A DNA stretch of 64,000 nt from the NCBI GenBank assembly GCA_973895155.1, contig OZ316899.1, positions 10,317,035 through 10,381,034 on the forward strand, given 5' to 3'. The position numbers and the translations under genes are program-made. This stretch comes from Marsupella aquatica. Lineage: Eukaryota > Plantae > Marchantiophyta. How positions within the stretch are numbered: the first letter of the stretch is position 1; every line of letters starts with the position of its first letter. Shown piece after piece: positions 7,801 through 62,274 of this stretch. The notes under the pieces are model-generated. The model had not been told where the DNA came from, searched no databases, and was given only the letters and a program-made list of their open reading frames with translations.

Positions 7801-8398
7801 ACCTGAATAATGTACATGCATAGTGCACCTGATGTGGATACCTTGGAGATTGCAGACATTCCAATTTTGAGAAGAAGGACCTCTGTAGGAGAGGATGCTT
7901 AGGCAACAAGTACCCTAAGTTCATTACTTGTTCCTGGGTACATGCCTTCAAAAACTCCCCTTAAGCCTTCTAGGAACTTTTTTAACTCTGCAATCATTTT
8001 GATCACGACTTACATGACACTGCTTAAATTAAATCAGGACTTCTCATTATGAGCATATAACTTACAAGGCTATTTAATTTGCAAGAATTCCCTTAAAGTG
8101 TACCAACATTTTGTATTCTCATTGAATGTCTGCCCATTTACAACATCTGTATGTGGCATCACAAAACAATTGCACTTGTCACCTTCAATATTGTGAAGAC
8201 ACATATTCAAACTATGAGGTGCATCCTTGCAGGTGTCTAGTACGTTTGTCCCAATATTTCTCCTGTTTGGAATTGGAGTAGAGACTCACCAGACGACTGG
8301 ACTGGACCAAGTTATAAATGCAGCATTTTAGGGGCCCTCCAATTATCAGGTGAACGCATTATCTTCCGGTCTGCAGTGATTAGGTGGGGTGTGTGTAC

Positions 8399-20889: not shown

Positions 20890-22817
20890 CACTAGTACAT
20901 ATTTAGCTGATTTCCGATGCTCAATTTTTGCAAACAATTGGCGTCCGATTCTTTTAGAATCGGAAATTCCCATTATCACAAAATGGCAATATGCCATACT
21001 CTCGGCTTTGGATATCTTCATTTCCGATGTAATTAACAACGGAACCTTTCCAATGTGGTAAAAAACAGATCATATCCGTTACAAAATACATCGGATCCCC
21101 TAACAAAAAATTTGATTGATATGTCCGATGTTTTTTGTAACGGAAATGATGTACGTTTCAATATTGATCGGAAAATTTCCGTAGTTGATAAGAACGGATA
21201 TTATATCCGATTGTGGTAAAATGGCAAAGTCCGATGCTGAGAGAATGGGAAAGTCCGATGCTAGTAGAATGGGAAAGTCCGATGCTGGGAGAATGGGAAA
21301 TTTTCATTTTGGCAAAACAACAAATTCCTATTGTGTTAGATGGGGCATGTAGTTGCACCGACATACTCTTCCTAGAAAAGAGGATACAATCATTTTTGCA
21401 TGTTTGAATGACTTCATACTTGAGGCAAATGGACTTAATTGAATGTTGTTCTTGCCTCCTTCCAAGACCCCAAAATATTGTTCCCTTTTGGCAATATTTG
21501 CTCAACATGCAAAATCAAAAATTTATCATCTAAAAGGAGATTGCTTGTCCCATGTAGTCTTTGTTGCAAGTCCAACAACAACATAGTTGATGAAAGATGA
21601 GACAATCGGGAGCTGCCCTTGACGCCAAGGCTTTGGAAGGACCAAAATATTAATCTTCCATAACTAATAAACTATAATGATCTCATGTCAAGTCGGATGG
21701 AGGAGGGCTTTACTATTCATGAATGACCCCAAATTTCTATTGATTGCTCCAAGGGAATGTAAGAGGGTAATCATAATTATAGATCACTCGATGCAAACAT
21801 GCAATATCATGAAAGAGCAAAACTGGGATTTATTAGTCTAATGCCACACTTTTGTGGCATAATCACTACATTGCCACTCTTTTTCTTGTATTTATCAGTC
21901 TGCCACTCGTTTGAGTCATCGGTTAAGAAAAGTAACTCAGGTTAACTACCTAAGATCCGACGTTTGAGATTTCTTTTGGTCTTCCCATTGGACGGTTGTT
22001 GCTTCTCTCACGGTTAAATTTTGAACCCTCAGTATAGTTTGCGAAGGGGTGGGTCGGCTAATCCATTTCTCCTCCCCTCCATTTCTCTGTCACCATAGTC
22101 GAGGCGCACTGACTGCGTCTTTGCTCCACCCTTGCCACTATCATTGCGTCCTCATTTCCCCGGCCCGGGCTGTGTTGTCATTGACCCTAGCTGCCTCTAG
22201 CTTGGCTGGGGTTGCATCGTTGCATGTTGCCTATCGGCCTCTCCCGACTCTGCCCAGCTTAGGTCCAAATTATGGGTCTTAATAAATTTAGAAGTGTATA
22301 AAATCCCTAAACACTCCAAGTCAAACAATAAAAGTGTTAAGCTTGCATGTACATTATGAGGGATAAGAACCACAAAGTTAAGCTCATGTTGGAGGAATAG
22401 CAATTGGGATGGGTGACCACTTAGTTGAGGAATGAAGAGTTGAAATGTCAAAGAAGATGGGCACCTCACTCGTGGTTGCAAAATGAAAGTAAATATACAA
22501 AGGAAGAGATGGGTGACCTGAGCACCCCTCGTCCGCTCCAATGTGTATCCCATTTTCATTGTTTTGCTCTTTCCCATACTCCCAGCATCAGACTTTTCCA
22601 TTCTCCCAACATCGGACTTTCCCATTCTCTTAGCATCGGACTTTCCCATTCTTTCAGCATCGGACTTTCCGATATAAGTCCGATTGTCGATATCCGATAC
22701 TTTTATCATGGCATGTTACGATGCCGACAGAATTGGATGTATGGTTTTTTCATATTTTGTTTTACAAAGACGTCCGATGTGGAGAGAATCAGAAAAAGGA
22801 GGTAAAATGTACTAGTG
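20890..22817. mobile_element. Non-autonomous CACTA (1.9 kb) nested in the TNP1-like gene
   Basis: CACTAGTACAT...ATGTACTAGTG termini, TSD ATA (20887-20889, 22818-22820), many TCCGAT/ATCGGA subterminal motifs. Confidence 0.93.
21220..21300 (+). repeat. 22-bp tandem subterminal array, mirrored in inverted orientation at approx. 22570-22672
   Basis: GAGAATGGGAAAGTCCGATGCT x3-4 versus AGCATCGGACTTTCCCATTCTC x4-5. Confidence 0.9.
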
Positions 22818-24723: not shown

Positions 24724-25156
24724 TGTGACACCGCCAACACGGCTTAACCCGTGTTATGCATGTACGAAGTAAACTTAGGAGTCCGTAGCTATTAGCATAA
24801 CTTACAACACAAATTAGCTAGTCATGATGCTTAGGACCGGTTTAGTCAATAATGGGCGTTCACGCTTGGGCTGGCGGCGCTACGCCTAACGCACCGCTGG
24901 ATTAGGGGCACATTATGGTTGTCCACCTTGGATCCGTATAACTGATCCGGAGGCGGCCCTCTAGCACAACCTAACCCGGACCTGAGGGATGGTTGGTACA
25001 CTTTGGGCGTGAGGGGTTCGGCCTATCAAAGCAAGAGGAGTCGATTGGTCGATGCACCACAAGGGTATAAAAGGCAAGCTCTTCCCCGCCTCTGGGTCAC
25101 TAGCTCCCTTTGCGCACCAGCTTTGATCCCAGCTCCTCTGTTTCCCCCTTAGCCAT
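24724..25156 (+). mobile_element. 5' fragment of a family B-type giant LTR
   Basis: Starts TGTGACACCGCC and is colinear with the reverse complement of approx. 35725-36164, including TATAAAAGGC at 25066. Confidence 0.85.
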
Positions 25157-32235: not shown

Positions 32236-33092
32236 TGTCACGCCGAAAGCTTCATCCGTACACAAATTTTGGCTTGGACGGGCATAATCTTCATTAGTTT
32301 TGAGGGTTCGGGCAAGGAGGGATGTGTGAACTGAACCTTACTCCCGTAATCTAGCGCTAATCCTACTTACATAAATATCATGGGTATAGCTTGTGTTCCG
32401 CCGCCGAAACATACCTTAAGCCAATAACTGGATTGACCCAGGCTTAAGCCTTCGCGCTATCCACCTCTGATCCGGATCCAATGATACAGGTGTCCAACCT
32501 AGGCTCGCAACCACTATCCGCAGTCGACAACCCGTGCCCAGCTCGGATAGTGCGTTCTGCCAAGCATTCTTCTACCCGTATACAAGATTCATACATGCAA
32601 CTGTATTCACAATCATTCAATCTCGGTTTACACGAAGGAAATAGTGGGAAAACACTTTAATTCATAATCCGTCATACACATATACACGGTTGACTTGACA
32701 TCTCTTGAATGAACACGACCAACGGCAGAAAGGCGTACACTACAACGGAGCCCGGCTCCACACTCACCCAGCGAGCTTAGTCGTACCCTCCCTCCTTGAC
32801 GCTCTTTTACTCACAAAGGCTGGGACTACTTGCACATCCTACGAATACCCAGTTCTAAAACTAAAATCCCCCTGCCTCTACCGGGGGGTGGACTAAATAC
32901 TAAGGGACGGGATCCAGAGCGGCCACGTGCCCGAATCTATGGTATCCGAGATTCTAAACTCTGCTAACTGCCAGGCCGTAAAACTGCGTGTCTTATTCTA
33001 AGATTCTAAACTACGAAGGTTAGTCGGATAGGACAGCGTTGCCAACTAGTTTTGGCGCTTGTGCTTATCTTCTGACTTCCCTAATTCTAACT

Positions 33093-35252
33093 CTATCCTA
33101 AACCTACCCCGCCGCTAATGTCTGGCGCGCTTGCCAGACCTGCCCAACTTGGATTTGAGCGGCCATCCCACTGCCTCCTAAGCCGGTTGGCGTCCTGCTT
33201 GAGCAGCTGGACTTGGTCTAGCAGAGATTTGTTCTCTTGCTTCGTCGTGTCTGTCTCCTCCACGGCTTCCTGGCATGCCTCTTCCAATTGTTGGGCGTTG
33301 CTCGTCAGCTTGTCCACCAATTGGGCCTATTTTGTGGCATCTTCTTGAAGTCGTGCTACCTCTGCCTTCAGGGCGTCCAGCTTGGCTGCGTCTTGCTGGG
33401 CCCGGGCGTTTGCTTCCTCCGCATCTTTTTGCCAGATGACGGCTTGTCCCTTCAAACCATCAATCTGGGTCCAGAGCCGTGCAATCTCGACATCCCTCCC
33501 AATTCCGGCCTATTCTGCCAAGGCTTCTCGGGCCCCAGCTTTGGCCGCTTGCTCCAATGCGGCCGCTAACTGAGGTCGTAGCAGTTGAAGCTCGGTTTCT
33601 CGGGCTGAGGCTTTGTTTTTCAGGTGGGTAGCCTCAACCCAATACCGCTCTATCTTCCGCGTAAGCTCAGTCTATGCATGCCCTACTCGTACTACTGCAA
33701 CCAATTCTTGGTTGACAAAGTAGGCCACCTTTCGTGCCATCAACTCCCCTGTATCCCGCGCAATTTGTTGGGAGAAGTCACCCAACAACCCATTCAAAAA
33801 TGTGCCCGGTGCAAAGAGTTCCAAGTACTCCAGGCTATGCCCACTCGGGTTCGGGCAAGGACAGACCCCAACTTGCGCGGGGGTTGGAGTGGTGACGTCC
33901 AGTCCCTAGACTATGAAGACAGAGGGGGTTGGGTTCTTCGCAAGGGATGGGGAGTTCTTGTGGACAACCGTGGAGGGTATCGGGGTGTCCTTCGTAATCA
34001 TAGTCTCAGGCCCGGGGCCGGCTTCCTCCAGCCCGACTTCGATGGTTGCGCTGGCTTGGTTGATCGAATCCAGGGAATATAACCACATTGTCCGATATAG
34101 AAGGAGGGGCCCCATGGCCGCCGGACTTTTGGCCTTGGGTTGGGGTCGCCTTTCTTGGGCCGGGAATACCCACCGTGATGGGGTTAGCTTGGGCTTGTTG
34201 AGCCATGGGAGGTTTTGGTGGTCAAAACAGGCGTACCACTCGATGATTATTTTGATGTGGTTTGCAAGGTACACCTTTCCACCAAGGTATAAGGTCTTTC
34301 TTCGTCGTTCCATCTCCTCGTGGAACTTCTTGACGAAGAAAGAAGCCCACTTCCTAGGCCGGTAGTTCTCGACCTAGATTACTTGGGCGGAGGATATTTT
34401 GCCCCTTGGCTCCATCATGTGAAGGGCGTACCTCTGGAACTCCAACCGCTCCGCTATCTCCGGGATGAGGCATGTCCTCATCAAGAATCCGTTGTCCAAT
34501 GCTCCTTCGGCCGGGAAGCTAGAGGACTGATACTTGGCTCCCTTGCCCCCAGGAGCCCGTGATTCTACCCGGTTTACTCCCTTGGGTAGGCCAAAGATCA
34601 TCTTGAGCCGTGCCTCACTTAGGGACATCACTCTCCCATGTGCACGGGTTTGTTGGCGGGCCTCGTCAAAGTTCTGGACAAACTCCGTCATATCCTGCCC
34701 ATAATACCTGCAAGTATTCCAAGGGAGAGCGGCGAAATGCTCAAACCCTTGGGTCTTCAGATAGCATGCCTGGTTGGGGTGGAGAATGTTCTTGTGGACA
34801 TTCTCCCCCATGTGATGCATGTTCAGCTTGGCCACCGCAACTGTGGCCAAGGGCAGCCCATATATAGCCGCGGGTTCCTTCCTCTTCCTACCCCAAGACT
34901 GGTTTTTGGGGTGACTTGTAGAGGGGGACATCTCCCAGTCCTCTCTATCAGGTGGCAGTGCTACCGCCGTAAGTACTGGCGTTGGGGCCGCCACTGTCAT
35001 CGCATTGTCCATCGAGGCTGCCGCCTGGGTTTGTTGATGTGTCGAAGCGGTACCCAGCCCGGCCCCATAAGAACCTGGTGAATTGTGGATAAGGGGAGGG
35101 GCCTCCTTGTCCTCTGAGCTGAGGTTGACCGCATTTACCATGGACTGCACTCGAGCAGATGGTGCAATGGGCGGTGGGGAACGGCGAGATGGATGGCGAG
35201 GCGGAGTTTGTGCCGGTGCTGGCGAGCTGGTTGGAGCTGGAGGGGGTGCCAT
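33093..35252 (-). pseudogene. LTR-encoded protein, family B (same domain + coiled coil), disrupted; may extend upstream to ~35690
   Basis: GFEHFAALPW...EFVQNFD...TRAHG...IFGLPKG...NGFLMRTC...PRGKISSAQV aligns with GLEAFVKLPW...EFMGSWE...TRVYG...VFGLPMG...NGFFQNTC...PRAEIGKAQV of family A; coiled coil at approx. 33093-33600. Confidence 0.85.
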
Positions 35253-35796
35253 AGGACTCCAAAATTTAGAAGGGAAGCCAAGGGATGTCAGTATTGAGGG
35301 CTCGCCGGACTCGGACTTTGATTAAACCAAAAGTTGGGGTAGGATTGAACTCGGGCAGTTATATCGTCAAAGTGATGACGTTGGAGATCCACCGTGCCCG
35401 GGATCCTGAAGACTTTGTCCGGGAGTCAGACGAGCGCTTCTCCAAAGCCAAGGTAATTTGGGCCGTCAAAGAAGAATTTGGTGATCTCCTCATTCTGTAA
35501 GTACTTGCTCTCAAACGGGAGGCTGAAGTTGTTGTTGTAGTGTGAGTGCGCATTGCTATAGATAAGTTGTTCGTACTCTCTCTCGGCTTTGTATCTGCGT
35601 GGATTGTGTCCGGCGAGTGATTTCGCAAGATGGCTCCCAATGTGTAGAAATTGAAACCAAAAACAAATGGCGGAAGTGGACATAATCAAGACCGACATAA
35701 GGCGTGGTGTGTATGATCGCTCCAAGGAAAACTAGAGAGTTTGGGATCAAAGCTGGCACGCGGAGTGAACTAGTGGCCCAAGACGGGGAAGAGCTT

Positions 35797-35806
35797 GCCT
35801 TTTATA
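35797..35806 (-). promoter_or_regulatory. Candidate TATA box of family B LTR, upstream of the LTR ORF
   Basis: TATAAAAGGC, also conserved in the diverged fragment at 25066-25075. Confidence 0.6.
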
Positions 35807-36199
35807 CTCTTGTAGTGCATCAACCGATTGGTTCCTCCTGCCTGTGATAGACCAAGCCCTTTGCGCCCGGGGGGTACTAACCACTCCGCAGGTCCAGGTC
35901 AGAGCGTGCCAATGGGCCGTCTCTAGATCTGTTATACAAATCCGAGGCGGACCGCCATAACGCGCCCTTAATCCAGCGGTACGTCAGGTGAAGCACCGCC
36001 AGCTCAAACACGAATCCCCATTATTACTAAATCCTGTCTTAAACATCATGACTAGCTAATTTGTGTCTTTATACTAATAACGACAGGCTACAAAGTCTAC
36101 TTCCAATGTACGTAACACGGGTTGAGCCATATTACTCATTACCAGCCGTGCGGGCGGCATCACATAGCTCCCTACTTAACTGTGAAATGTCCTCGCAAA

Positions 36200-39100
36200 C
36201 ATTGCTATTGGTGGTAACATCTTGATGATGGTACTTTTTCACATGATCATAACTAACTTGTGTGGGAAATAAGTCTCCAGCGTACGTTGCAAGCTCAATG
36301 GATCTGTTTGGGTAAATCTGATTGACAAGGAAAGGTCCCAACTAGCGAGTATGTAGCTTCCCAAGAAATTGCATGTACCTGATATTGTACAGAAAGACAG
36401 GTTGCCTGTTGCGACGTCGATCTTCCGTAGTCGCTTGTCATGCTGCTTCTTGGAAACTGCCTGTTGCTTTGCTGCGTGTCGGGCAGCTAGTACCCGGGGC
36501 TTCTTCTAATGCTTCAATCTGGTAAGCTCTGTCCGAAGAACTATCGGCCTTGGATAAGCGATCCCAAATACTCACCCGTGGCGTGTGAATTTCAAACTCG
36601 ACCGGAACCAACAAGTGTTGTCCGAACACGAGAAAGTACGGATTGTGACTGGTAGTAGTCTTGTAAACCAAGTTGTACGAGTACACAACAGCGTATAACT
36701 TGTCATCCCAATGTGTTTTGTGTGCGGCTACTGTTTTGTTGAGGATTTTCCCAATGATCCCATTTGCCCTCTCTGTTAGTCCGTTGGCTTTTGGATGGTA
36801 AGGGGTGGTCTTGCGGTGCTTGACTAGGTACCATTCCGTGAGGCGCTCTACGGTTTCATATGAAATGCGTTCCCTGATTGCTGACTAACTCCAAGGGTGG
36901 CCCGAAGCGGGTGAAGATTTGTTCATACAAGAACTTGGCGCTGGTAGTGGCATCATCCTTTACCGTAGCACAAGCTTCCACCCACTTGGTGGAATAGTCT
37001 ATGGCTAGCAGGATGTACTTGCACTTGCATCTTCGCGTAACTGGAGTGAAGGGCCCAATGTAATCAATGCCCCATTTCTTGAATGGTGCTAGTGGAAGTA
37101 CGGAAGTGAGTGGGTGGTTGTGGGCTTTCCTTGGGGCGCCAGCCCGTTGGCATAAATCGCACCCTTTGATAAAGCGTTGTACATCCCGATGTAACGTAGG
37201 CCACCAATACCCCAAATCCAAGATCTTACAAGCAGTAGTGATGGCCGCAAAATGGCCTCCGGCTTCCTCTTTGTGTAGGGCCTACATAACAATGAGCGTT
37301 TCCTTGTATTCCAGGCAACACCGTAGCTTCCCATTAACTCCTTTGTGCAAGTGGCCCTGTATCATCATATACAGCCCGGCCTTATGTAAGAACACAACAA
37401 CGGCCTCCTGATTAATTCCATCAAGGATGCAGCCCATAAGGACGAACGTACCATGTGGGTGTGCCTGCCCCTACGTGGAATAATTCCTCATCAGGAAAGG
37501 TATGGTTAATAGGCTGATCAACAGGTATGCCGTCCAATTGTGAAAAGAAATCGACATTGAGGTGTGCCTTCCCTGGCCAAACCCATACCTTGTAGTTAAA
37601 CTCCTGTAAGAGCGATACCCACCTGGCTATCCGTCTCGTGACATCTGCTTTGTTCACCATATACTTTAAACTATCATGATCCGTATGAAATATGACTTTG
37701 TATCCAAGCAGGTAGTGTCAGAACTTCTTACACAAATAGATAATGCCTAGAGCCTCTCGATTGGTAGGGGAGTAATTTTTCTTGGCCATAAATAGCTGAC
37801 GGCTAGCAAAATAGATGGGGTGGTCGCGACCGTCCTCGTCAAGCTGGCTTAGTACGGACCCAATGTAAAACCCCAAACGTCAACGTACACATGGAATTCT
37901 TTATTCCAATCTGGGGTTACCATGATAGGTGCCATGGTGAGTCGGCGTCGGAGTTCTTCAAAGGCTATGCGCCTCCGGGGCGTTTCTTCAATCACCGCAT
38001 CCTTCTTCATCATCTCGGTTAGGGATAACGCAATTTTAGCAAAATCTTTGATGAATCGGCGATAGTACCCTACGCAGCCCAGGAATGACTGTACTGCTTT
38101 TTGATCCACAGGGAACACTACTACCATCCGGGCCGCAACCTTCTCATGGTCTACCTTGATACCCCATTTAGACACATGATGCTCGAGTAACACCCCCTCC
38201 TCTACCCCGAAAAAGCATTTAGCCGGATGTAGCTTTGAATTCACTTCTCTGCATCGTTGTAGGGTACGGCATAAATGTTTGGGGTGCATGGCGATGGTTC
38301 CAAAGATGGCAAAGTCATCAATAAATATTTCCAAGAATTCCCGTAGGAAGTCATGGAAGATATTCATCATGAGTCTCTGGAACATGGCCGGGGCATTACA
38401 CAGTCCAAACGGCATTCTGAAAAATGCGAACATCCCCCACTCCGTGGTGAACGTTGTTTTAAGCTGATCCGAGAGTCGGATCCAGATTTGATTGTAGCCC
38501 AAATATCCATCGAGGAACGTATAGATTTCATTACGGGCTACCATATCTAGAACCATATACGTGAATGGTAACGGGTAGTGATCCTTCCGGGTGGCGTCAT
38601 TTTGTTTATGATAGTCCTGGTAGATGCAAATTTTGAGCTTTTCGTCCGTACCCCCTTCTTCGGCACGATGACAATGGGAGACACCCAGTCACTGGTCATT
38701 ATTGGGTAGATGATATACGCGGCTAGAAGACAATCAATCTCCTCCTTCACCAAGATGGAGTACCTTGGGTTCATGCAACATTGCCGCTGCGGTACGGCGT
38801 GAGCTCCCAAGTTTAAATTGATCGTATGTTCTCCCAACTTGGGGAAGACTCCCGTCAAATTGTGATGGCTCCATGGAAACACATCTTCATACTCCTTGAG
38901 CAGTGCTTGAATGGATTTTTCCGCATCTCCCTTCAGAGCATGGCCTAAGTTGAAAGACTTATCCATCCCAATGGTGTACTTCCGGTAGTGTTCCTTCCTT
39001 ATGACCCCCACTTGATTACGCAAGCTAGGGTCCAGACTTGCATCTAGCTTGGCTAACCAAACTCCTCCGTACATTGGTGGAACCGGAATTGGCTTTGGAA

Positions 39101-39870
39101 TTGGGGTTGCGTCCTCTTGTGGCGGAATGGACGGATCCCAGGAGACTCGTTTCTTATGCTTTGGCATTGGGGTTTCAGGTTTGGGCAATGCTTTGGCAGG
39201 TTCCGGGTCAGTAGGGTCAACATTGGCTCCTTGCTTAGCTGGAGCCGTATCCTCCATATCCTCCGAGCTGATGGCTCGTACTTGCTGTTCATCCATCCGG
39301 GTGCTAGAGAGACTTGGGGTGGTCCCGTCTATAATGTCTTTTGGGTAATTTAGGAGATGCATCTCCCACGTTGCCTTTATTTCAAAAGCTTCTTCCTTGG
39401 AAAGGGACAAAATGAGCTTAATCATATTGAGCTCTCCTTCCTCCAAGGTCTATGAATCATACTCCTCGGGTCCCTGTGGAGTCTCGCCCTGATAATCGTC
39501 CACCGCCCATGATACTCGTACTGTGGGTGTCTTGAATTGTAGCTCCTTCTTGCCTTAGTCCGTGACTACGTGGCCACCGTATAGCCACGGCCTTCCCAAG
39601 AGGACCGGGTAAGAAGATGGTCGGACCGGCCTCATGACCAAAAAGTTTAGAAAAAACTCCACACCTCCTACGAGGGTGAGAACCTTGGTGAGCGTGCCTA
39701 GGGGGAGAACTCTTGCACCATTTGCTAATCGAATAGCTCAGGCTGTGGGTTGATATGTGAGATACCCCAATTTTACAGATGTTTCTTCAGTCATAATATT
39801 GACTCATGCTCCGCCGTCCACGAGAACCATCTTGATGGTATAGCCCTTGATCTCGATCAAGATGTCGGTG
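36200..39870 (-). pseudogene. pol: pol: protease, RT, RNase H, integrase (degenerate)
   Basis: LVDGGA protease motif near 39820; WVSPIVIVPKK, FIDDF; IYFASRQL/IARWVSLLQEF; CDLCQR, WGIDYIGP, LVSNQGTHF, GPF motif. Confidence 0.93.
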
Positions 39871-39989
39871 CCCCCAGGTCTTCGCAGATCATATTACAAT
39901 TTGCAACACCTACACGTGGTAGCCGTCTTCTCCATCGGCCCGTGAGCAACTCTCTCAGTTGTTGTCGGTATTGGGGATTATTCGAGAGT

Positions 39990-42099
39990 AGTTGTCCTAC
40001 TGTTGTTGTGACTGGGCAATTCTTCACATCTTGCCAAATGTCGTATTCCTCCTTCTTTTCTTCCTTTGGCTGCTGCTTTGCTTCCGCTTCCCGCTTCTCC
40101 TACTCTTCTTGTTGAGTGGCCTTATCAAAGGTCTTTATCGATTGCTTTCTGGTACTCTCGTGCTTTGTATGCTTCCAACTGTTTCTTTACCAACTCTTTG
40201 ATGCGAGGATAGAATAGCTTTGGGTCATCCTGACGGTAGTCGTCGTCCTCCTCTGGGGGTATTCTACCGTTGGCTGCCCTGGCGTGGTATCTTGCTTCCG
40301 TCGGCGTTTCTCTTCCTGTTTCTCTTGCTTTCATTTGGATCTGGTTGACACTTGGTAACATTCAGCCTCATTTGATGGATTGGGGTGTTCCGTTACATTG
40401 ACCAAGTTGACCCACTCGGTGGTATCATCTTCCCACTCTATTGCTATCATTTGAACAACCGCATCATTTGGAGCTCGACCACCTGGGGCCTGCCTAGCTG
40501 CACTTGCACGTGCTGCTATTACCAACGGGCAATTAGCTGTGGAATGAGCCTCCGTTTTGCAAACTTGACACAATGGCATGCCTCTGCCGTCTCCTTGCCG
40601 TCTTTGTTCGGTGCATTCCCTCGCAAAGTGACCGGGCTTCTCATAGTTGTAACAAACTGGGGATTGCCAAATCCCTGGCTTCAGAGGAATGCTCGGGTTA
40701 CTTATAACTTGTAAGCCCCTACCATTCAAGTATGGATACGCAATTATGCCAGCCAGATTTCAAGGATCCATCGTGGAGATCTGATACACGGAGTCTGGGG
40801 GATCTTCAAAGAAGTACTCCGTGGACTCCGGTTCTGGCCCCGGGCTGTTGACATCGTCCAATTCCACCTGATGGACTCAATTCTTCCATCTCGGGCATTC
40901 TTACACGACATGCCCCAATTGGAAGCACTTGGAGCACCACGCATGCGCTCGGGTTTTGGACGACTTCTTCTTTCCACAGGCTTCTCCGCAAGATGTACCA
41001 ACAATGCTTTGAGGCAATCAATGATTTTGTTGAGCTTGTATGTTTCAGCAGCCTTGGGATCTGGTAGCGTTCTTCAAACATGGGGCTTGACTTTCTCCTC
41101 CTTAGCGCGTCGTTTCTTCTTCTTGCTCCGCGTCTCGCTCTCCAAATCACTACCCAATGAGATTGAGGTGGAGGAGCCACTGGTCGAAGTTGAATCCAAA
41201 CTAGATCCCATCTCTGAACTGGACGAGGTTGAACAATGTTTCTTCTTCTTCTTGCGCTTCTTCTTCTTCCCATCGTCTGTTTCAGAGTCAATGTCACTGA
41301 AGTTCTGGTACTTGCTCTTCTTATGTCGTGCCCATTGGCTTTGTCGGGAGTTATAGGCGGACTCCCTATATGTTTCGGCGCATGCAATGGCTGCTTGCAT
41401 TGAAATTGGGTTATTCTGGCGTACCCAAAATTGCATATCCGTGGGCAATCCATGTAGAAACCACGTAAGCTGGAGCGCATTGCCTGGTCTGGGCCGGATC
41501 TTGGCAGTGAGTTTCTGGAACTTTTGAATGAATTTTTGCAAGGACTCCTTCCCCATGCAAAGCTGACCAATCTTCAACAAGGAACGCTACTCCGCTCCAA
41601 TGGCACGAAACTCTTGTAACAACGTGGCCTGGAATTGTGGCCATGTGATTCCGGGCTGTAGCGAGTTGTACCATGGATGAGCTTCTCCCCGCATTACTCC
41701 GGGGAGAATTGTCAACTTAATGGCGTCCTCTTTGTTGGCCTTAGTAGTGGCTTCAAACTCATCCAACCATTCATTCGGATCGTCCCCATGACGTCCTTTG
41801 AAAGGTCGGTAATGAAACCATGACTACTGTGATACTTGTGGGGGAGCTTGGGCTGCACAAGCCACAGCCGGAGGGGTTGCCGCCATGGGTACCGGTGGTG
41901 GAGGTGGCGCTGGCAGTGGTGCAGCAAAGGCTGGACCAGGACCTGCTGGACCGGATCCCAAAGGTACTGGTGGTATGTTCATCCGTTGAGGCGATTGTGA
42001 GTCCTCCAAGTCTGAAGATTTGGAGCTTGTTGTGGTTGCACTCTCTTGTTTGCTTGTCAATCTCCTTAAGTAAGCCACTTGAGAATGAGTGACGGGCAT
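39990..42099 (-). pseudogene. gag: Gag of family B with Lys/Ser-rich linker and zinc knuckles (degenerate)
   Basis: MPVTHSQ start, FKGRHGDDPNEWL, CYNYEKPGHFAREC, CQVCKTEAHSTANC; several frameshifts. Confidence 0.85.
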
Positions 42100-42200
42100 C
42101 TACTCTTATAAATGTAATGGTTAGCAACTATCTGGGGCCCAAGGTCCGGTGATCAGGTACATACGCACATGTCTCCATTCTACTATACTTAGAATGCCCC

Positions 42201-42215
42201 CTCCATCTAGCGCCA
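42201..42215 (-). other. PBS of family B
   Basis: TGGCGCTAGATGGAG, 13 nt downstream of the 5' LTR end. Confidence 0.7.
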
Positions 42216-42274
42216 AAAACAAAGGGTATGTCACGCCAAAAGCTTTGTCCTTACACAAATTTTGGCTTGGATGG

Positions 42275-49616: not shown

Positions 49617-50829
49617 TGTTGTGATAGATTGAACAACTGTATTTCCATTCCCTTCCATATCCTTACATATAGGCTTTCCAATAGCCTGGTGGTTAGGCAG
49701 TTAGTGTGACCTAACCTGAGTAGGCGTAATCCTAGTTAACCTTATGTATGGTCTAGTTAACTCAGGTTACAACACTCCCCCTTGGGTGTAACAGGATTCC
49801 GGGGAGGATTGTTGCACCCACTTCTAGCCTACTCTAATTGTGAAATGTTTATTCTAAGGTTTATTGGTTTGGGGGAATGTAACCTCATTAAAACCCCCCC
49901 TCCTTTCTTGCTGGGGGAAAGAGTGTTACCATTCCATCCTTAAAAACCTTATAATTTTGGTTAATTTATGAGTAATCGAGTTAGTAGAGTCTTATACGAT
50001 TTAAAGTTATCGTAACTTGTAAAGACCTAAAAATCTCATTGTGGTCCCGCTTGGTAATTCGTGGAGGAGCGGATATCTTGCGCTGTGATTCTTGGCGATG
50101 GTAGTGGTGTGCAATTGGTGTTGGCTGCTGCACTGTGAAGATCGTCTCGCATGGAGTGGGCGTCATCATTTTTGCTTGGGGGTGTTTGTAACTGCATTGT
50201 TGGTGGTCATTCTTGCTAAAATTGGGGGATTCTTCTCTGATCGATTCTCTTCTGCGCGATTGAAGTGTCGGGAAGTGGATGTGGTAAACTGTAGCTAGTG
50301 GGATTTGTTCCTGGCTGTTTTACAGATGAGGTTTTGTATTGCTCCCCCTGACATTGTCGTTTATTTTTGTGGCTCTCTTATAGTCATTCTTTGCGTCGTG
50401 TTGACGTAGCTGCCGTTTCGCTCCAGAATGTTACTATCTTTGAATGAGTGATTGAGTGCTCCCCCTGATGTTGTCAATTCTTTGAATTAGTCTAGCTTTG
50501 GTGTTTGTCTTCTCAAGTGAGTCAGCAGCATCGATCCAGAAAGTAGTTGGTGGTGAGCTGGGTCGTATTTCTCCCTCTGTTATCGAAGGTAAAATTTTGT
50601 AAAGAATACTATTCTTGAGGTTTGAATGGCTGTTTGTTTGAGGGTTCGGATCTCTCCCTGATTGCCATAAGCATGTCTGTTGTGATCTTTGTTTGAGATC
50701 TGTTCGAGTTGAGCTGGTCCAAGCTTTGCGGTGTAGCCTACAGATTGGGTCCCCCCTGAGCAAAAAATGAGCGCTTCCACTGTAAGTATAATTGTGTTTA
50801 ATTTTGTAGTTCAGTTAAGGTCCATAGAC

Positions 50830-53800
50830 CTACTGAGATTGCATGTTGTTTATGCAATGCAGGAGGTAGGGATTTTGTAAACATGTCAGCAATGTTCTGT
50901 GAGCTTTGTATCCATTTAACTTGAATACTACTTCCTTGTTGTTCATGCGTGAAAAAGAACTTAGGAGCAATGTGTTTGGTTCTATCTCCCTTGATAAAGC
51001 CTGCTTGAATTTGTTCAACGCAGGCTCTGTTATCTTCGTGAATTTCCGTCGGTGTTGACAGTGTAGGTATGCCTGTATTCTCATGAATGTGATTGATAAC
51101 GTTGCGTAGCCAGATACACTCCCTACTTGAATTCGTAGAGAGCTATTATCTCAGAGTGGTTGGATGATGTAGTAGTTAATGTTTACTTGCAACTTCGCCA
51201 TGAAATTGCTGTCTCACCCATCAAGAAAATGTATCCGGTCTGAGATTTTGCATCCTCAGGGTCTGAAAGGTAACCTGCATCAACATACCCAGTGAGTAAG
51301 TATTTAGCATCTGATGGGTAAAATAGTCCCAGATCTATGGTACCTGCTAGGTAGCGGAAAATACGCTTTATGCCATTCCAATGACGAATAGTCGGCTTGG
51401 CACTATGGCGTGCCAGTAGGTTTACTATGAAGGCTATGTCAGGCCTTGTCTGGTTCAAAAGGAACATCAGGACACCTATAGCAGATAGGTATGGCTTTTT
51501 TGGGCCAAGTAGTGGCTCCATCTCGCTTTTCTTCCGGAAGAGATCCTTTTCTTTATGAAGTGAGCGGATGTCCATGGGAGATCTGACTGCAGTGGCTTTG
51601 TCCATGTTAAATTGCCTTAGAATCTTTTTGATGTACGTGGACTGATGTAGTAAAATGCCATTGTGCAGGTGCTCAAATTGCAGGCCTAGGCAGAAAGAAG
51701 TTTGGCCTAGGTCGCGCATCTCGAAGGCCTTTTTCAATAGTGTAATAATTTCAGTCAGAATCTTTTTAGTTCCGAACAGGTTCAGATCGTCCACATAGAT
51801 GGCTACTATAATAAATTCCTTGTTCTCCCGCTTCAGGAATAAGCAGGGTGCTATGTCTGCATTCTTAAATCCCATAGCCTGCATCTCGGCCTTAAATCAT
51901 TTGTACCATGTCAGGCCACTTTGCCTAAGGCCATACAGTGATCTTAACACCTGTACTGCGAATCGAGTTCTCCGGGTGATGTCTCTCTAATTCTGTATAG
52001 GGACTTTAAGGGCTATCTTTGCTGCAGTCTTGTGGAGTATTGCTGAATTGGTATGCTCAAATGTTTCCGGCTGGTTCCGAGTTGCTGCTTTATCGATTTG
52101 TTTCCCTTTGCTGTGGTATTCGACTCGTTTCACCAATTCTGGAGGGGCCTCCATGTATATAACTTTGTCTAAGTGTCCATATAAATACACTGTCACAATA
52201 TCCATTTGATGCATGGATAAGTGGTGGTGTTGTGAAAATGTAATCAGGTACCTGTAGGTAATGACATCCATTACCGGCGAGTATGTGAGGTTGTAGTCTC
52301 TGCTCAGGACTTGAGTGAATCCCCGAGCCACCAGTCTGGCCTTGTGTCTTGTTACCTCGCCTTTCGCATTTCTTTTCTTTACGAGGGTCCATTTATACCC
52401 TGTGAGATGTACTTCAGGTTCTGCTATTGTGATTGGGCCAAATACCTGGCGGGCTATTAATGAGTCCAGTTCTAAATGGATGGCCTGTTCCCATTCAGGC
52501 CAATCAGGTTGGACCTCAGCTTCTTTGATTGTTTGAGGGTCAGGCAGTTCGTCTTCAATCTACTGTGCTATGCGGAATGCAAATTGTTCATCTATTGTAG
52601 TGTGCTCTCTGTCCCATACATGTCCGGTTCTTCCATAGTTGATTGATATCTCTGCATTGTCTTCTGGTACATTTGGTTGACTTGTAGTTGGATCCCTGGT
52701 TGATGGGTTGGGTGCAAGTGCTGGGGCAACTCTACGCTGTCTTGGTTGCTTGTCGACAGATCCCAGTGGGCGGCCTCTCTTTGCTTTCGGGGCTGGTGGG
52801 GTCTCCATTTGTATTCTGGATGGGGCGTTTGCTGCTGGGATATGGGAGCGTGTCACCTGGGCGGCATCTGCGAAGGAGTCTGGTAGGTGTTCTGCCATCC
52901 TTGCTAGGTGTAAGATTCGTTGTACTTCAGTGTCCGCATGACTATCCCTTGGGTTGTTCCAGAAGCCGGCATCAATTTGCCAAGTAAGTTGGGAGGTTTT
53001 CTCTGTGTCAAGTTGCTTCGTATGTAGGCTGGGAAAAATATCTTTGTAGAAGTGGCAATCTGCAAAGCGTGCTTTGAAGACATCGGATGTTGTAGGCTCC
53101 ATATATCTGATGATTGAAGCTAAGTCAAAACCTATGTATATTCCTGGGTGTCTCTGGGGTCCCATCTTAGTTCTCTTAGGTCCTAGGATGGGCACCATTA
53201 CTTTACAGCCAAACATTCTCAGGTGAGAGATATTTGGTATGGTCCCCAGTGCTAGGTGATGTGGGGTAGAGGAATTAAAAGATGATGGTCTATAATTGAG
53301 TAGTGCAGTAGAGTGGAGAATGGCATGACCCCAAGCAGCTGTTGGTAAGTTTGTCTGCATTAGTAGGGGTCTGGCAATCAGCTGCAGTCGTTTAATCAAG
53401 GATTCGGCTATTCCATTCTGAAAATGGACATGGGGTACTGGGTACTGGACATCAATGCCCGTGGCCTGGCAAAAATCTTCAAACGTCTTAGAGGTAAATT
53501 CGCCAGTGTTATCTACTCTCAATGTTTTAATTTGGTTTTCAGGGAATTGAGCTCTCAATTTTAGTATGTGGGCAAGGAGTCTGGAGAATACCAGGTTTTG
53601 TGTAGATAGTAAGGATATCTGACTCCATTTTGTTGATGCGTCTATGACTGCCAGGAAAAATTGGAATGGGCCACTTGGAGGGTCAATCGGCCCGCATACG
53701 TCAGTGTGTATGCGCTCCAGGAAGTGGGGGATTTGGTGCTCAATTGTAGGTGGTGAGGGCCGGATTATGAGCTTGCCCTATGAGCAAGCTAAACAGGGAG

Positions 53801-54361
53801 CTTTCATGGACGTGGGGTGGACCATTTCCGGTATGCCCAGGGTTTCTCTAATCAGTTTCTGGAACATTGTTGTTCCAAGGTGGCCAGTCTCCTGTGCCAG
53901 ATCTCGGTAAGTGTGCCTTGGGGTGTTCCAGTGTAGAAGCTGTGGATTTTAGGAGTGTAACAACCGGGGAGTGATGCTCTCAGGATCTCTCTGATCTTAG
54001 TATTTGTTGGTTCCCCCGAGGTGATGTACAAGACTTCCCGTCCTTGTTGAGTGCCCGTCTTAATATGCAGTTTGTTAGCACGAATATCCCCAAAGCTTAG
54101 TAAGTTTCTGGTTGCCTTTGGGGCGTATATTGCAGACTCCACATGAATTATCGTCCCACGGGGTAGGGTGACCAATGCTGGTCCAAATCCCTCTTCCAAT
54201 TGATGCTGGCCCATAATCGTTGTAAGTTTTCTTTGGGATGGTATAATTTGCTTAAAGTATTCCTTATGCTTAAAAATGGAATGCGATGTACCACTGTCGA
54301 CTATGCATTGGGAAAAATTTTCTTTGATACTAGAATCAGGTGTGGTCTTTGATATTACCAT
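50830..54361 (-). pseudogene. pol: Copia pol: protease, integrase, RT, RNase H (degenerate)
   Basis: IVDSGTSHS, WHRRL, RVDNTGEF, QNGIAESLIKR, ARGFTQ, SLYGLRQSG, IYVDDL, GYVDAGY. Confidence 0.93.
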
Positions 54362-54390
54362 GTTTATAGTTGGTATAATTTATGTGGATT

Positions 54391-55387
54391 CTAGGAAAGT
54401 CCCATACGTCTCAGGTTCATTTTGTGCAGTGCTCTTCTTATATAGTTGCACCAGGTGTGCAAGTGTACGACAGAATTTTTGAATGTGGCCTTTAGTGCCA
54501 CAACAAAAACAGGTAGAGGGGTTTTTGTATTCATCTCTTTGAGTGCTTTGCTGTTGATTTGTCCTCGCTCGGGGTTGATAGTTGCCTTGCTGCCAATTGT
54601 TTCTGAAGTTATCGCCGGTGTTTTGGTATCTTCCCCTGGATCTGCATCTGAAGTTGTTGCTTCTGCCTCCGCGTCCTCTGAAAAAGCTACCTCGGCCTCT
54701 GTATGTGTTTCTCCCCCTGAAACTACCTTGACCACGGTAAGATGAGCCCTCTTCCCTTTGGGTTGTAACGTAGTGGGATTCTGAATTTGTGACTAGAGGG
54801 AGAGTTCCAGGGGGTCATTTGTGGGAATTCTGTAATAGCAATAGCTGGTGCTTTTCAGCCAGGAGCATATGGGCAATCAACTCAGAATATTGTGTGAATC
54901 GCATATTGCGATATTGGGTAGAGAGAATAAGATTTGTAGAGTGAAGGGTAGAGAGCGTTTTCTCAATCTGTTCGTCATCATTAACGGGGTGGCCACATAT
55001 GGCCAATTGGGATACAATCCAAAATAATTCGCAATTGTAATCCACGATTGTTTTATGGTCCTGGACCTGGAGATTTATCCAATCGTGTCTGGCCGCAGGC
55101 AGGTGTATGGTGCGCGTGTGGTCAAAGCGTGATTGAAGTGCATCCCAAAGGACTCTCAGATTATATTCATTCATGTACTGTCGCTTCAGAGAGTCACTCA
55201 AATGGTGTCGAATTAGTATCAATGCCTGCGCTTTTTGCTGAAGTGTTTGGCCATTGTCAGTTATTACTGTATCCTGTAGATTCTTTGAAGTTAGATGAGC
55301 TTCAGCATCGAGCGTCCAGGACAAATAGTTGGCACCATCGATGCTGAGTGGTTGAAATAAGAGTTTCTCCATAGAATTCTTTGACAT
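54391..55387 (-). pseudogene. gag: Bianca-type Gag
   Basis: LSIDGANYLSWTLDAEAHL...LILIRHHL...LPAARHDWINL, followed by an RGG-rich region and a zinc knuckle in shifted frames. Confidence 0.88.
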
Positions 55388-55711
55388 ATTGCTAGATTCT
55401 AGTGGTATAATTTCTTATTGGTAAGCACAAGGTTGCAATTGTATTTGAGTGTCCAATCTCAATTTCATTCAATTGTTGAAATTTGAGAAAGAGGAAATGG
55501 AATTGAAAATTGTAGTTGGTGAATTGTAATTTCTTATCTCAATCGTCCAATTCGTTTCATGTGTAATTTTGATTTATAACCTTCCATCCCCCTTGATTGA
55601 TCTGACCACCGTTGCACCTTCGCCTGCCATAAATCCTTTCCTAAAAGGTTGCCAGTCTATCTCAAAAGAAGAAAGAGGGATGATTTTATAAAAAATTGAT
55701 TCAAATCAGCA

Positions 55712-55725
55712 TCGTGCTGATAACG
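55712..55725 (-). other. PBS complementary to the 5' half (anticodon arm) of tRNA-Ile
   Basis: CGTTATCAGCACGA directly abutting the 5' LTR; no TGG start. Confidence 0.75.
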
Positions 55726-55813
55726 TGTTGTGATAGATTGAACAACTGTATTTCCATTCCCTTCCATATCCTTACATATAGGCTTTCCAATAGCCTGGTG
55801 GTTAGGCAGTTAG

Positions 55814-56029
55814 CCGGGGTCGATCCTGCTATCGACTAAGGTACATTCCGGCGGCGGAACACAAACCATACCTAGGAGGTATCCATATTTAGCAGTATGC
55901 GCACTTAGCGCTAGTTTACGAGAATAAGGTGCATTACGTGCTTCCCTTCCTGCCCGAACCCTCAGATTTACGAGGGATGTGCCCGTCTAAGCTGAAGTCT
56001 GAGTTAAGGCCGAAGCCTACGACGTGACA
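55814..56029 (+). mobile_element. 3' end fragment of a family B-type giant LTR
   Basis: Diverged reverse complement of 32236-32445; ends CGTGACA; carries the double hairpin. Confidence 0.8.
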
Positions 56030-57612: not shown

Positions 57613-60600
57613 TGTGATGCCTAGACAGGAATCACTCGGCCAGTTAAGTGGGTAAAGCAGGAAGGCACCCTAGGAACACCTTAGTATAGGGACAAAACAA
57701 GGAAAATATAAACAATTAGGGGCAACCATGGAACCCGGGACGAGGCCGGAGGTAAGGACGCTGAGGGTGAAAACTTGATTAGGGTTAGGGCGCGTTAAGC
57801 GTCGGCGGCTAGGAAGGATCAACGGGAAGAAGGATCGGCAGAGGAGAGGGGTAAGGAGCGCTTGCAGGAGATGGTGGCTCATTTGCGAGCACGAACTAGG
57901 CAGACGACTACGGGAGGCCAACTACTGTCAGCTGCTTAGGCAAGCACTCGGGGAGAGAGTAGATACCGACGATCGACCTAAGGAGGGTATGAGCAACGTC
58001 AATCAAGCGGCACATTTCTGGGGATGCCTGTTCGAACGGGCAACTGAGTACATCAAGACTTACGAGGATGAGGAATCAGAAAGGGCAGCTCGAGAACGGC
58101 AGGAGCTCGCTCGATTGTGGGAGCTGCAGAAGACAGCTTTCTTAGGAGGCAAACTCATCAAGGACGAGTTCCTGTGGACGCCTACTTCCAATCAACTCGA
58201 CAATCTTCTGTTTTGCAAAGACAACGTCATCGGCATCCGAGAGGCCATCAAGAACTGCAATGACATACACTGGGAATTAAAGGGTAGCACGGAAAGGTGG
58301 ACCCAGGCAACGGTGCTAGGAGAAACCTCCACGGCAGCAGAGATGAAGAGGAAGGGAGCCGTCAACGATGAAGCCACCCCGGCAAAAAGAACGAGGTCGG
58401 CGGCACCAAAGAAGCCAGCCGAGCAGCAGAGCAGGAGGCAGGGAGAAGCCGAAGAGGAGGACGTCGATCCCATCAAGGCCATTCCAACCAGGGATGACAC
58501 TTGGAAGGGCTGGGCGGCAACCCTACCGGTGGAGGTGCAACTACATTTTGCACGGGAGGAGGATGCATGCTTTACGGCCATGCAGACCAAGAAGTACCAA
58601 GGCTTCATGGCCGGATCCGGCTTAGAGGCCTTTGTAAGATTACCATGGCTGAAGCCGGAGGTACCGGAGTCAGACCTATTAGAATTCGTGGGGTCATGGG
58701 AACCCGAGACCAATTGCACGAGGATATATGGGAAGGATTTCTATCTTACTCCCAAGGTAATTGCCAAAGTGTTTGGCTTGCCGATAGGCAATAAGACCAA
58801 AGTTGATACCAGGAAGACCTTGCCTGACAAGGAGTTCCGGTCGTTCCCCGGGCCATCAACGAAGAATGGCTTCTTCCGGAACACCTGCACCAACCCGCAC
58901 ATAGGAGAGATGATCGACTTCTTGCGGGTGACCATGCATTGTAACTTGCCGAGGGCAGAGATCGGCAAGGCACAGGTCTATCTGGCAGAGAGGCCAGACC
59001 CAAGCCGGGACTACAACGGGTACCTCCTCAACCAATTGAAGAAGATCTTAAAGGAGGAGCAGCAGGTAATCGGCATGGGGAGCGTATCGCGGCTTGGCTA
59101 TCACATGCCGCTGTTGTGCCGGTATGCCAGAGGTCAGACTTTTGCCCCAGTACTTCCCCTACAGGTAAGGGCACCCGAGGAAGCTCCAACGCCGAGGCCG
59201 TTGGCTGAGAAGCCTCAACCACCTGTTAGCCCTACGATCGAGCAGGTGTTTAGGCCCAGGAAGGAGGACTTGCCGATGCAGCAACCAGGCATGCAGAGTC
59301 TGCTGAAACTACTGGAGAAAGAAAAGAAATCGGCATCGGCAACAACAACGGCAACGGCAACAATGCAAGACACTACTATAGAGGTAGGCCTACACCGGCT
59401 CACAAGAGAAAACCCCTTTGCTGGAGACAAGGAGAGAATCAGGCCGGAATCCAAGCCAGGTGTTCGAATGTATGTGGGAATCTCAAGCTCCGAATCTGAG
59501 GCAGAATTGCCTAAAGCTCCTACCGACGAAGAGGAGAGGGAGAAGCCGGACGTCCAAGAAGTAGAGGAGGCAGTGGAGGACTGCAACCATGATAATTCCG
59601 GCTATGGGTCGGACCATCACGTTCCAGGAGTAAGGACCTGTGGCCGGTTTGTCCCCACACTTCCAAGGGTAGTGCGAGGGGACCCCAACCAGTAGAGTAG
59701 CCCTGAGTCTCCCCCACCAGATGTTGCTCCCCCGAGCTTTGACGGCATAAAACAGATGGTGCAGGAATTTCAGGAGCGAATCAGGCAGGAAGAGGAGGCA
59801 GCCCTGGCTAGGGAAAAGGATTTACCAGGAGGAGATTGGCCGGAGGACATCAGGCGGCTAGCCAAAAAAGGAAGCAAACCTCTAGCCACGATTGAAGAGA
59901 TCCGCAGGACGGCTTGGGAGCAGAGGCCGCGATGGGCGATGCCGATCACTTCTACTTACTCCACCTATGCTAAGAATAGAGCCATGGAGTATGGTGAGAT
60001 GTGTGGGGAACTTGCGCTCGGCATCTTTGGAGAGGAGTTGGAGGTAGGACCCTTTTTCCATAGGGAGCAGTTGGAGAAGCACCAATTAGAAGAAGCGGTG
60101 GCTTTAGAGAGACGCAAGAAGGACGAGGTCATTCGGCGGCTTAGGAGGATGGAAGCCGAGATTGAAGATCTAAGGGCGGCCAAGAAAGCCCAAGATGAAC
60201 TGCGGATTAAACGGCATGAGCTGAACATCATGCAGGGGCAGTTGGACACCGCGCAGGCTGATAATCAAAATATCAAGGAAAAACTAACTCAGAAGCAGGG
60301 AGAGTTGGCCGACACGATCAAAGAGAGGGAGAAGTGGAAGCAAGAGCTGAAGAATACAGAGGAGGCCCACATAACAGCCAACATCCGGGCCATGGCGGAG
60401 ACCCAAAGAAAGGAATGGGCGTTGAAGGGGGAGCTCGAGAAAATCCGCGGAGCCCTTGAGCAGAAGGAGGCCGAGTTAGGGAAATCCTATCAAGGGATTA
60501 TGGCGCTGCAGCAGGAGCTTGCGTCCCTGACGGCCAGCTTCAAGGCCGACCTAAGGGAGAAGGACGAGATGCTCGAACAGACTTACGCCAAGATGAACCA

Positions 60601-62274
60601 GATGGAGTCTATCATCATTGCAGAGCTCGACAAGGAGCTAAGAGCAACCCGGGAGGAGAGGACTACCTTGAAACAAGAACGGGAGGAAGCCCAGAAGGAA
60701 CTAGAGGAGGCACGCAAAGACCTGGATGAGACCCAGGAGGAGTTGGAGGAAATCACGAGGAAGATGGAGAACCTCCAGCGGCGGGCCGACAACCAAACGG
60801 AGCGGCTGAAGAAACAAGCCGCAGTATTTAAGTGCTTGTCTTCATCAGGCCCAACTCCAATTGGGGCAACCAAGTTACCAGGAGTGGTACTGGCCGAAGA
60901 AAAAGCCGCGCCACCTGCACCAGTGCCGGAAGTAAGTGGGAAGGGGAAGGGACCAGCTGCCGAACCAGAAAAGAAGAAAAAGCGGAAACCTTCAGGGTCA
61001 AGGAGTAATCCGACTCCACAAGCCGTGGTGACCAAGGAGGTAGAACCAGCACCATCCTCCGGCATGAATACGGCAATAGATCCCGCTATCATCACAGGTG
61101 GGGGTGGTGCGGCCCAAGCCGAACTACTCAGTAATGAGTCCGGTATTCCAGATCCGCCTCTTGAGCAGGCCGGGAAGACCGTAGCCGAGGCTGAGGCCGT
61201 AACCGATTCCCGAGCCGATGCCGACGCCGATGGTGGACCCAGTCAGGCCGATGGAGAGTTGACTCAGTCAAGGGCAGGTAATCTGTCAGAAAATGAACCT
61301 ACGGCAGTGGCTGAGGAGGAAGCGTTGGGGGCGTCCATTAAGGATCCACCACCGGTGTCGTGACGGTGCAAGGGCGCCGTTCCTTTTAGGGAGGGCGGAC
61401 GTGGAGGGAGGAGGCGTGAGTGGGCAGGGCGGGCGCTGATCTCCAAGTTTAAGATTAGGATCAGGACCAGGAGCGGCCCTGACACTTAGCTTAGTGGGAT
61501 TGCGGTCCCACTGGTAGGAGCAACACTTGTGCTCCTGCCTTGCTGTACATAGGTAGATTCGGGCAAGTAGATTACTGTTAAGTAGATTAGGCTTACGATG
61601 CAAAGAATGGCGGATCCACTACCAGGATAAGTACCTGGGCAGCGGGGAGCTCAGGGCCTCTTCTTTAGCAAGTTTTTAGTTTGCACCAGTCGGGCTAGGA
61701 TCAAGTAGTACGAGAAGCTCTCGGTTAGTCATACAGTGACCCTTGTGTATATTCATGTTTCCTCATGCCTAAGAGTTGAATAGAGTTGGCCTCACGGCTT
61801 AGTTCGCAGAGCTTGTGTATGAGATGTACTGTTTGTATGGCAAGTGCATGGTATGACTCAGTCAGAATGAGTCATTTTGCTATTTGTGTGTCGCATTAAC
61901 TTGTGTGAAGAGTGCACACATCAACCAAAAGGAAGGAAAGTAAGCAGGGGAGTGAGAGTTGGATGTGTTGAGCTGAGAGAGGTCTTAGCGGCTTAACCAA
62001 GCCTATTGGGGATCATTCCGGCGGCGGAATCCAAACATACCTAACAAGACGGAGGGGAAGACAGGGGAAGGCCTAGATTAGGCCGGCTACGTATCTCATG
62101 ACCCGATGAAGGATCTGTCCAGTATATGTGTGTAAAATGTTAATAGTAGTAGTAGAAGGTTAGCAGCGTCCCATGCCGCTAAGCCGCGGAAACGGCCTCG
62201 CCAAGCGCGAAACCTGCGGGAATCGGCTTGAGCTGGGGGTTTCTTGGGTTTAGGGAGCCATGGGACGTACCACA
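57613..62274 (+). mobile_element. 4.66-kb protein-coding solo-LTR (family A, copy 2)
   Basis: TGTGATGCC...GTACCACA; TSD CACAC (57608-57612, 62275-62279); removing it restores the family D LTR sequence GACACACACTAAGGACT. Confidence 0.92.
57989..61363 (+). pseudogene. LTR-encoded protein, family A copy 2: 1124 codons with one premature TAG at 59693-59695
   Basis: ORFs 57989-59695 and 59756-61363 are in the same frame; the TAG is CAG (Gln) in copy 1. Confidence 0.9.

Follow-up and report, generated by a model that had tools for sequence, protein, structure and literature searches.

A gene inside the long terminal repeats of a Ty3/gypsy retrotransposon family, likely of liverworts, encodes a protein with a predicted VANC21/PMD-like fold

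The 64,000-nucleotide stretch of Marsupella aquatica contig OZ316899.1 analysed here (positions 10,317,035 to 10,381,034; hereafter the window) contains nested plant transposons, namely pieces of Ty3/gypsy and Ty1/copia elements along with a CACTA-type transposase (Transposase_21, DUF4218). Several of its long terminal repeats (LTRs) contain a long open reading frame (ORF), which in copy A1 of the repeat family termed A measures ~3.4 kb, i.e., ~72% of the LTR (Table 1). This gene was shown to be internal to the LTR and selected, to occur in three LTR lineages (A, B, and C), and to move along with solo LTRs. The distance from its stop codon to the LTR end is 911 bp in A1, 857 bp in B, and 908 bp in C.

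Copy A1 sits within the 5′ LTR of a different gypsy element, the uninterrupted form of which occurs three times in the window, and the corresponding empty-site joint was seen in all four sequencing runs (from four coded organisms, with 18,477, 34,128, 860, and 145 contigs covering the A1 unit; one run is possibly the window's own source, and summed depth does not equal copy number). The second copy, A2, has this ORF as well, disrupted by two stops and a frameshift of 1 bp. A depth step was found at its end (12936/12937) in all four runs, where 13, 44, 4, and 2 contigs continued into the flanks with an agreement of only 0.35–0.57, pointing to many insertion sites. Family A thus displays the hallmarks of Ty3/gypsy solo LTRs, i.e., TG..CA ends, a 5-bp target-site duplication (TSD), many independent insertions, and empty sites. 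No direct repeats at the termini turned up among the families listed, which forms part of the basis for regarding A1 as a solo LTR.

The nine bases that open the B repeat are the same as in A and come directly behind a purine tract and the end of integrase. In front of the B gag stand a 46-bp remnant of this LTR end and, after it, a primer-binding-site (PBS)-like sequence. Since this repeat flanks a gag-pol region (with reverse transcriptase (RT) and RNase H confirmed by Pfam) together with a polypurine tract and a PBS-like sequence, the unit was identified as an LTR. For family A, loose ends hinted only weakly at this PBS. The B PBS-like sequence begins 13 nt after the LTR end (42215–42228), whereas Neumann et al. 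worked with a smaller LTR-to-PBS spacing of 0–5 nt (PMC6317226). The window contained no tRNA to which it could be assigned, and its reading as a tRNA-Arg site, as in Tat elements, is tentative. Neither a chromodomain nor an extra RNase H (aRH) was seen in the two degenerate B pol segments scanned or by reading, and liverwort Tat elements without aRH are on record (PMC13468544). We tentatively read element B as non-chromoviral with a Tat- or Athila-like position.

The ORF is under purifying selection. Between A1 and A2, the ratio of non-synonymous to synonymous substitution rates (dN/dS) was 0.089 in the core domain described below and 0.23 over the whole ORF; it was 0.92 upstream of the ATG at 57989, 1.09 in the 3′ non-coding part, and 1.0–1.2 in the two shifted frames over the ORF. 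By codon position, the differences between both copies numbered 156/127/305 in the ORF and 13/13/43 in the core domain. At the premature stop of A1 (59693), 88–100% of the depth reads otherwise in all four runs, indicating that this stop is damage of copy A1. Since inserted copies decay neutrally, it is most likely the replicating lineage that was under selection, which in turn makes it most likely that the protein serves the element. The fact that every window copy carries stops or frameshifts might instead suggest a captured host gene fragment or a decaying passenger, useless to the element. However, this explanation is largely refuted by the strong purifying selection between copies and is barely credible given that most of the family depth lacks the A1 stop, and that the same layout recurs in three diverged LTR lineages of a deeply divergent family.

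An in-frame ATG at 57728 was also considered as the start, but the 57728–57988 region showed no third-position bias (23/22/15), so that 57989 was preferred. In A2 and, going by depth, in the majority of family copies, this upstream ATG and the 87 codons after it are uninterrupted, with no codon-level selection, and a short out-of-frame ATG near 57871 is common to the copies.

An earlier note on this DNA, made from the sequence alone, had described a domain motif shared by families A and B within otherwise unalignable proteins. All eight sub-motifs are indeed present in the three window copies (A1, A2, and B), and the A1 domain (about 58541–59152) and the B domain share 26% identity over 178 aa (tblastn E-value of 1e-14), with a local score of 176 vs. 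a maximum of 72 among 2,000 shuffles; A1 and A2 are 91% identical within the core domain. Across the homologues covering this part, however, PR-xx-I-xx-AQV was kept in only 1 of 57, making this portion of the motif specific to A and B, and the positions conserved family-wide are F-x-L (52/57), W158 (41/51), and H188 (36/45). Both families also proved alignable beyond the core domain, as they have a ~105-aa N-terminal domain in common: A1 scored 15.8 bits against a profile of B and 12 homologues (A excluded), the best of 2,000 shuffles reaching 8.4 bits. A pairwise A1–B comparison of this N-terminal part alone was not significant (97 of 1,000 shuffles). Single changes in the N-terminal domain comprised 22 synonymous and 11 non-synonymous ones, and in B it is encoded in a different frame, beginning at 35683.

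The sole clear structural match of the predicted core domain was VANC21 (PDB 9LNK/9LNJ), at 9% sequence identity; it spans the entire domain, and the runner-up among 48,161 chains scored 6 Z units lower. The ESM Atlas provided an independent lead to a DUF1985 cluster (0.90) and a plant mobile domain (PMD) cluster (0.88). Of the Pfam families, Transposase_32 (PF20167) was the one touched by the largest number of members, always below the cut-off (best score of 17 bits vs. a gathering score of 45 bits; 3 of 64 homologues at E ≤ 0.1 and 6 of 69 sequences at E ≤ 10, over profile positions 3–87 of 177). PMD (PF10536) matched none of the three window copies at E ≤ 10 and none of the 64 homologues at E ≤ 0.1, and neither Transposase_28 (PF04195) nor DUF1985 (PF09331) matched any of these homologues at E ≤ 0.1. 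In the literature, the PMD-C domain is described as resembling the DUF1985 of VANC (bioRxiv 2024.09.27.615353), and VANC and MAIN as structural homologues, with VANC being dicot-specific and derived from host MAIN-like genes (PMC13547354). The PMD/Transposase_32-like resemblance proposed in the earlier note is thus supported at the level of the predicted fold, which is like that of VANC21, but not as family membership: the core domain is predicted to have a VANC21/PMD-type fold, and by Pfam criteria is not a PMD, DUF1985, Transposase_28, or Transposase_32 domain. By analogy, the nearest functional model is the transposon protein VANC and not host MAIN/MAIL1.

An AlphaFold model from a three-sequence alignment was unusable (pLDDT of 38.7), Foldseek returned nothing at E ≤ 0.001 in the PDB, and sequence searches of the PDB gave no credible domain match (one yielding coiled coils alone). 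The likeness to VANC21 could have arisen by chance or be very remote, in which case this would be a liverwort transposon family of its own, functionally unconnected to VANC/PMD. We consider this improbable, since the match extends over the whole domain with the above-mentioned margin, and since the Atlas and Pfam, which are other methods, lead to related plant transposon domains.

Downstream of the core domain, the Pro-rich linker and long coiled coil of the earlier note were recovered as a Pro/Ser-rich linker followed by a ~245-aa proline-free, heptad-like stretch, while its basic runs correspond to a classical bipartite nuclear localisation signal upstream of the core domain, found by pattern scan, and a KKKKRK run at 60971. 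The protein thus probably enters the nucleus, as judged from these predicted signals. A long coiled coil would also suit an env-like or movement protein aiding cell-to-cell movement of particles, and the extra ORF of an Athila element is reported to combine Transposase_32 with a transmembrane helix (PMC11728184). Such a role is nevertheless very improbable here: no hydrophobic segment is present in A1 (maximum 19-residue hydropathy of 0.83), only 7 of 32 long homologues exceed 1.6 and none exceeds 1.82, the basic signals are of nuclear type, and Foldseek against the viral models of BFVD found nothing at E ≤ 0.001 (the best being A0A890CAY5, an unnamed protein of 805 aa, with an E-value of 0.016 and a TM-score of 0.38).

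Word-based searches for homologues gave none with the A1 domain (286 candidates), one with a three-row alignment, and three among longer proteins. In total, 64 domain homologues were collected, and among the 30 that were looked up, 14 had a named source, Calypogeia fissa in 12 cases and Riccia sorocarpa in two (both liverworts); all three longer matches were from Riccia sorocarpa. Locus searches of metagenome and viral contigs revealed no relatives. In a domain tree of the 45 of 69 rows with at least 140 aa of the domain, A and B fell in different subclades with long branches, indicating deep family divergence, and no direction of transfer was drawn. The five Riccia rows formed one clade. In four Riccia sorocarpa gene models (P0057, P0060, P0084, and P0085), the domain follows a DDE_Tnp_4 transposase, presumably Harbinger-type, with a junction common to all four. 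This suggests that a DNA transposon family also carries the domain gene, as Mutator-like elements (MULEs) carry PMD, although adjacent ORFs may have been fused in the gene models.

The ORF is preceded by a promoter-like box within the LTR, as judged from the sequence, and the TATA box at position 359 of the B LTR recurs in a B-related fragment (24724–25153). Toward the other end, a single short inverted-repeat motif (pattern derived from A, B, and C) has five matches in the window (1470, 13188, 32391, 55846, and 62016), all in these LTRs and ~170–270 bp from the 3′ end of the five LTR ends, and represents a candidate site. Its hairpin stability was not above that of shuffles (z of –0.55 to –1.13), and overall, the non-coding 3′ sequences of A and B aligned no better than by chance. 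In family A, this part (61364–62274) differs by ~0.11 per site between copies vs. ~0.54 for synonymous sites of the ORF, indicating constraint or homogenisation.

Taken together, we assign a probability of about 0.5 to the interpretation that a Ty3/gypsy family, likely of liverworts, carries an LTR-internal accessory gene for a nuclear, DNA-binding protein of predicted VANC21/PMD-like fold that counters silencing. The gene would sit inside LTRs of 3.9–4.7 kb, and its product would enter the nucleus via the predicted nuclear signal, oligomerise via the predicted coiled coil, and bind DNA of its own element, keeping this element transcribable against host silencing. By analogy to VANC21 and MAIL1/MAIN, DNA binding seems rather probable, and an anti-silencing or trans-activating effect about evenly balanced. 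MAIL1/MAIN are described to oppose Polycomb silencing at DNA motifs (bioRxiv 2024.09.27.615353), and VANC21 to bind a 9-base motif, often tandemly repeated, and to demethylate its own family (PMC5735166). What weighs against a strict copy of VANC is that such repeated target motifs were not found in the non-coding DNA of the elements as far as it lies in the window, which does not include the internal region of family A.

This last result would fit a protein of the same fold, probably nucleic-acid binding, that acts in the replication cycle (cDNA nuclear import or tethering, RNA packaging, or gag-pol control) and not in anti-silencing. The conserved 3′ motif could then be a single site or RNA hairpin, and such functions have been proposed for plant extra ORFs (PMC7264820). 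We nonetheless regard a replication role, the main competing explanation, as rather unlikely, since the Riccia homologues accompany DDE_Tnp_4 transposases, where a retrotransposon-specific role is not expected, and since the characterised proteins of this fold, as far as described, act on chromatin.

As for the origin of the arrangement, we lean slightly toward an Athila-like starting point, in which an extra ORF in sense orientation, located after pol and ahead of the 3′ LTR, was absorbed into the U3 part of the LTR with its own promoter, the alternative being an ORF in a very long R/U5. Under either origin, every solo LTR would retain the ORF along with the TATA-like box and the LTR end, and those that are intact could provide the protein in trans.

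Compared to known systems, VANC21 of the Arabidopsis Mutator-like VANDAL21 is likewise a transposon accessory protein in which a globular domain of this fold is combined with a predicted coiled coil (PMC13547354). The protein described here differs by being encoded within the LTR of a retrotransposon, by its additional N-terminal domain, by its low identity to VANC21 and the lack of detected target-motif arrays, and by its named relatives being liverworts, whereas VANC is described as dicot-specific. PMDs (Gypsy PMD-A, MULE PMD-C, and host MAIN/MAIL1/MAIL2) similarly occur on both retro- and DNA transposons, as the family of the LTR gene appears to do, but the survey that describes them on Gypsy and MULE elements treats them as a family of angiosperms and leaves their origin (transposon vs. 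host) open (PMC5418596), and PMD ORFs of Ogre elements were assigned to positions before or after the polyprotein (PMC6317226). Extra ORFs in general were sorted as upstream or downstream of gag-pol, with none inside an LTR in the available parts of two surveys (PMC6317226, PMC7264820), and a literature search for plant LTR-internal ORFs found nothing relevant, subscription papers being largely outside its coverage. The Athila extra ORF with Transposase_32 is comparable as a sense-strand ORF of a non-chromoviral gypsy element with sub-threshold profile matches here, but it lies between pol and the 3′ LTR and has a transmembrane helix that A1 lacks. The predicted VANC/PMD-type fold found here thus falls outside the range in which that fold is described.

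In retroviruses, sag of mouse mammary tumour virus and lentiviral nef are coding sequences in or overlapping the LTR, which are likewise duplicated and left in solo LTRs. Their proteins are unrelated to the one described here, whose ~3.4-kb frame takes up most of the LTR of a plant retrotransposon.

Elsewhere in the window, a Ty1/copia element (49617–55813) has very short, identical LTRs of 88 bp, pointing to a young insertion, and two BRCT-domain ORFs (8384–9246), which may represent a host gene or a captured fragment, adjoin the CACTA-type transposase region (10254–12853). A degenerate 330-bp palindrome (20944–21274) and two inverted 24-bp tandem arrays (21206–21300 and 22569–22673) are close to an unannotated 311-aa ORF (19023–19958).

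Table 1. Positions of the LTR units, and of the gene and putative signals within them, in window coordinates.
Feature	Position	Strand	Remarks
Family A solo LTR, copy A1	57613–62274	+	4,662 bp; TG..CA; TSD CACAC on both sides
LTR-internal ORF, A1	57989–61363	+	1,124 codons; one premature stop (59693–59695)
TATA-like box, A1	57707–57712	+	LTR position 95; kept in A2; putative role
N-terminal domain, A1	58001–58303	+	~105 aa; conserved; function unassigned; no Pfam family
Predicted bipartite nuclear localisation signal, A1	58346–58396	+	pattern scan of translations; kept in A2
Core domain, A1	58541–59161	+	predicted VANC21/DUF1985-like fold
Long predicted coiled coil, A1	60089–60823	+	245 aa without proline; Pfam coiled-coil matches weak only
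Short inverted-repeat motif, A1	62016–62034	+	single; recurs in the 3′ part of each of the five related LTR ends
Family A solo LTR, copy A2	12937–17641	-	4,705 bp; own 5-bp TSD
Core domain, A2	16091–16711	-	
Family B 3′ LTR	32236–36164	-	3,929 bp; degenerate homologous ORF
Degenerate ORF, B	35683 to 33093	-	one frameshift and several stops
Core domain, B	about 34236–34763	-	
TATA box, B	35800–35806	-	LTR position 359; ~120 bp upstream of ORF
Internal region, B	36165–42274	-	polypurine tract by LTR; degenerate gag-pol (RT, RNase H, integrase)
PBS-like sequence, B	about 42197–42215	-	after 46-bp remnant of 5′ LTR end
Third related LTR (C), 3′ part	1–1703	+	ORF tail with coiled coil; stop at 795
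B-like LTR, 5′ fragment	24724–25153	+	76% identity to B LTR start; same TATA box
B-like LTR, 3′ fragment	55814–56029	+	70% identity to B LTR end; shared 3′ motif

The LTR-internal ORF is a real, selected accessory gene at an unusual location. A 3.4-kb gene within an LTR challenges the view of solo LTRs as non-coding remnants, and pipelines that seek extra ORFs only between LTRs would miss it. Since few transposon anti-silencing proteins have been characterised so far, its product is of interest as a candidate anti-silencing factor of a retrotransposon, in a group of plants that is amenable to experiments, and a liverwort transposon-borne family with this predicted fold makes the origin of PMD (transposon vs. 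host) testable by trees and structures. In a wider scenario, which we put forward tentatively and on the doubtful side of possible, the LTRs of liverwort retrotransposons would harbour a VANC-like gene for sequence-specific anti-silencing, equipped with a promoter of its own, solo LTRs would act as a dispersed supply of the protein, and the same domain would serve Harbinger-type DNA transposons in Riccia, so that the VANC/PMD fold would be an ancient counter-defence module that predates flowering plants and may have been a source of the host MAIN/MAIL genes.
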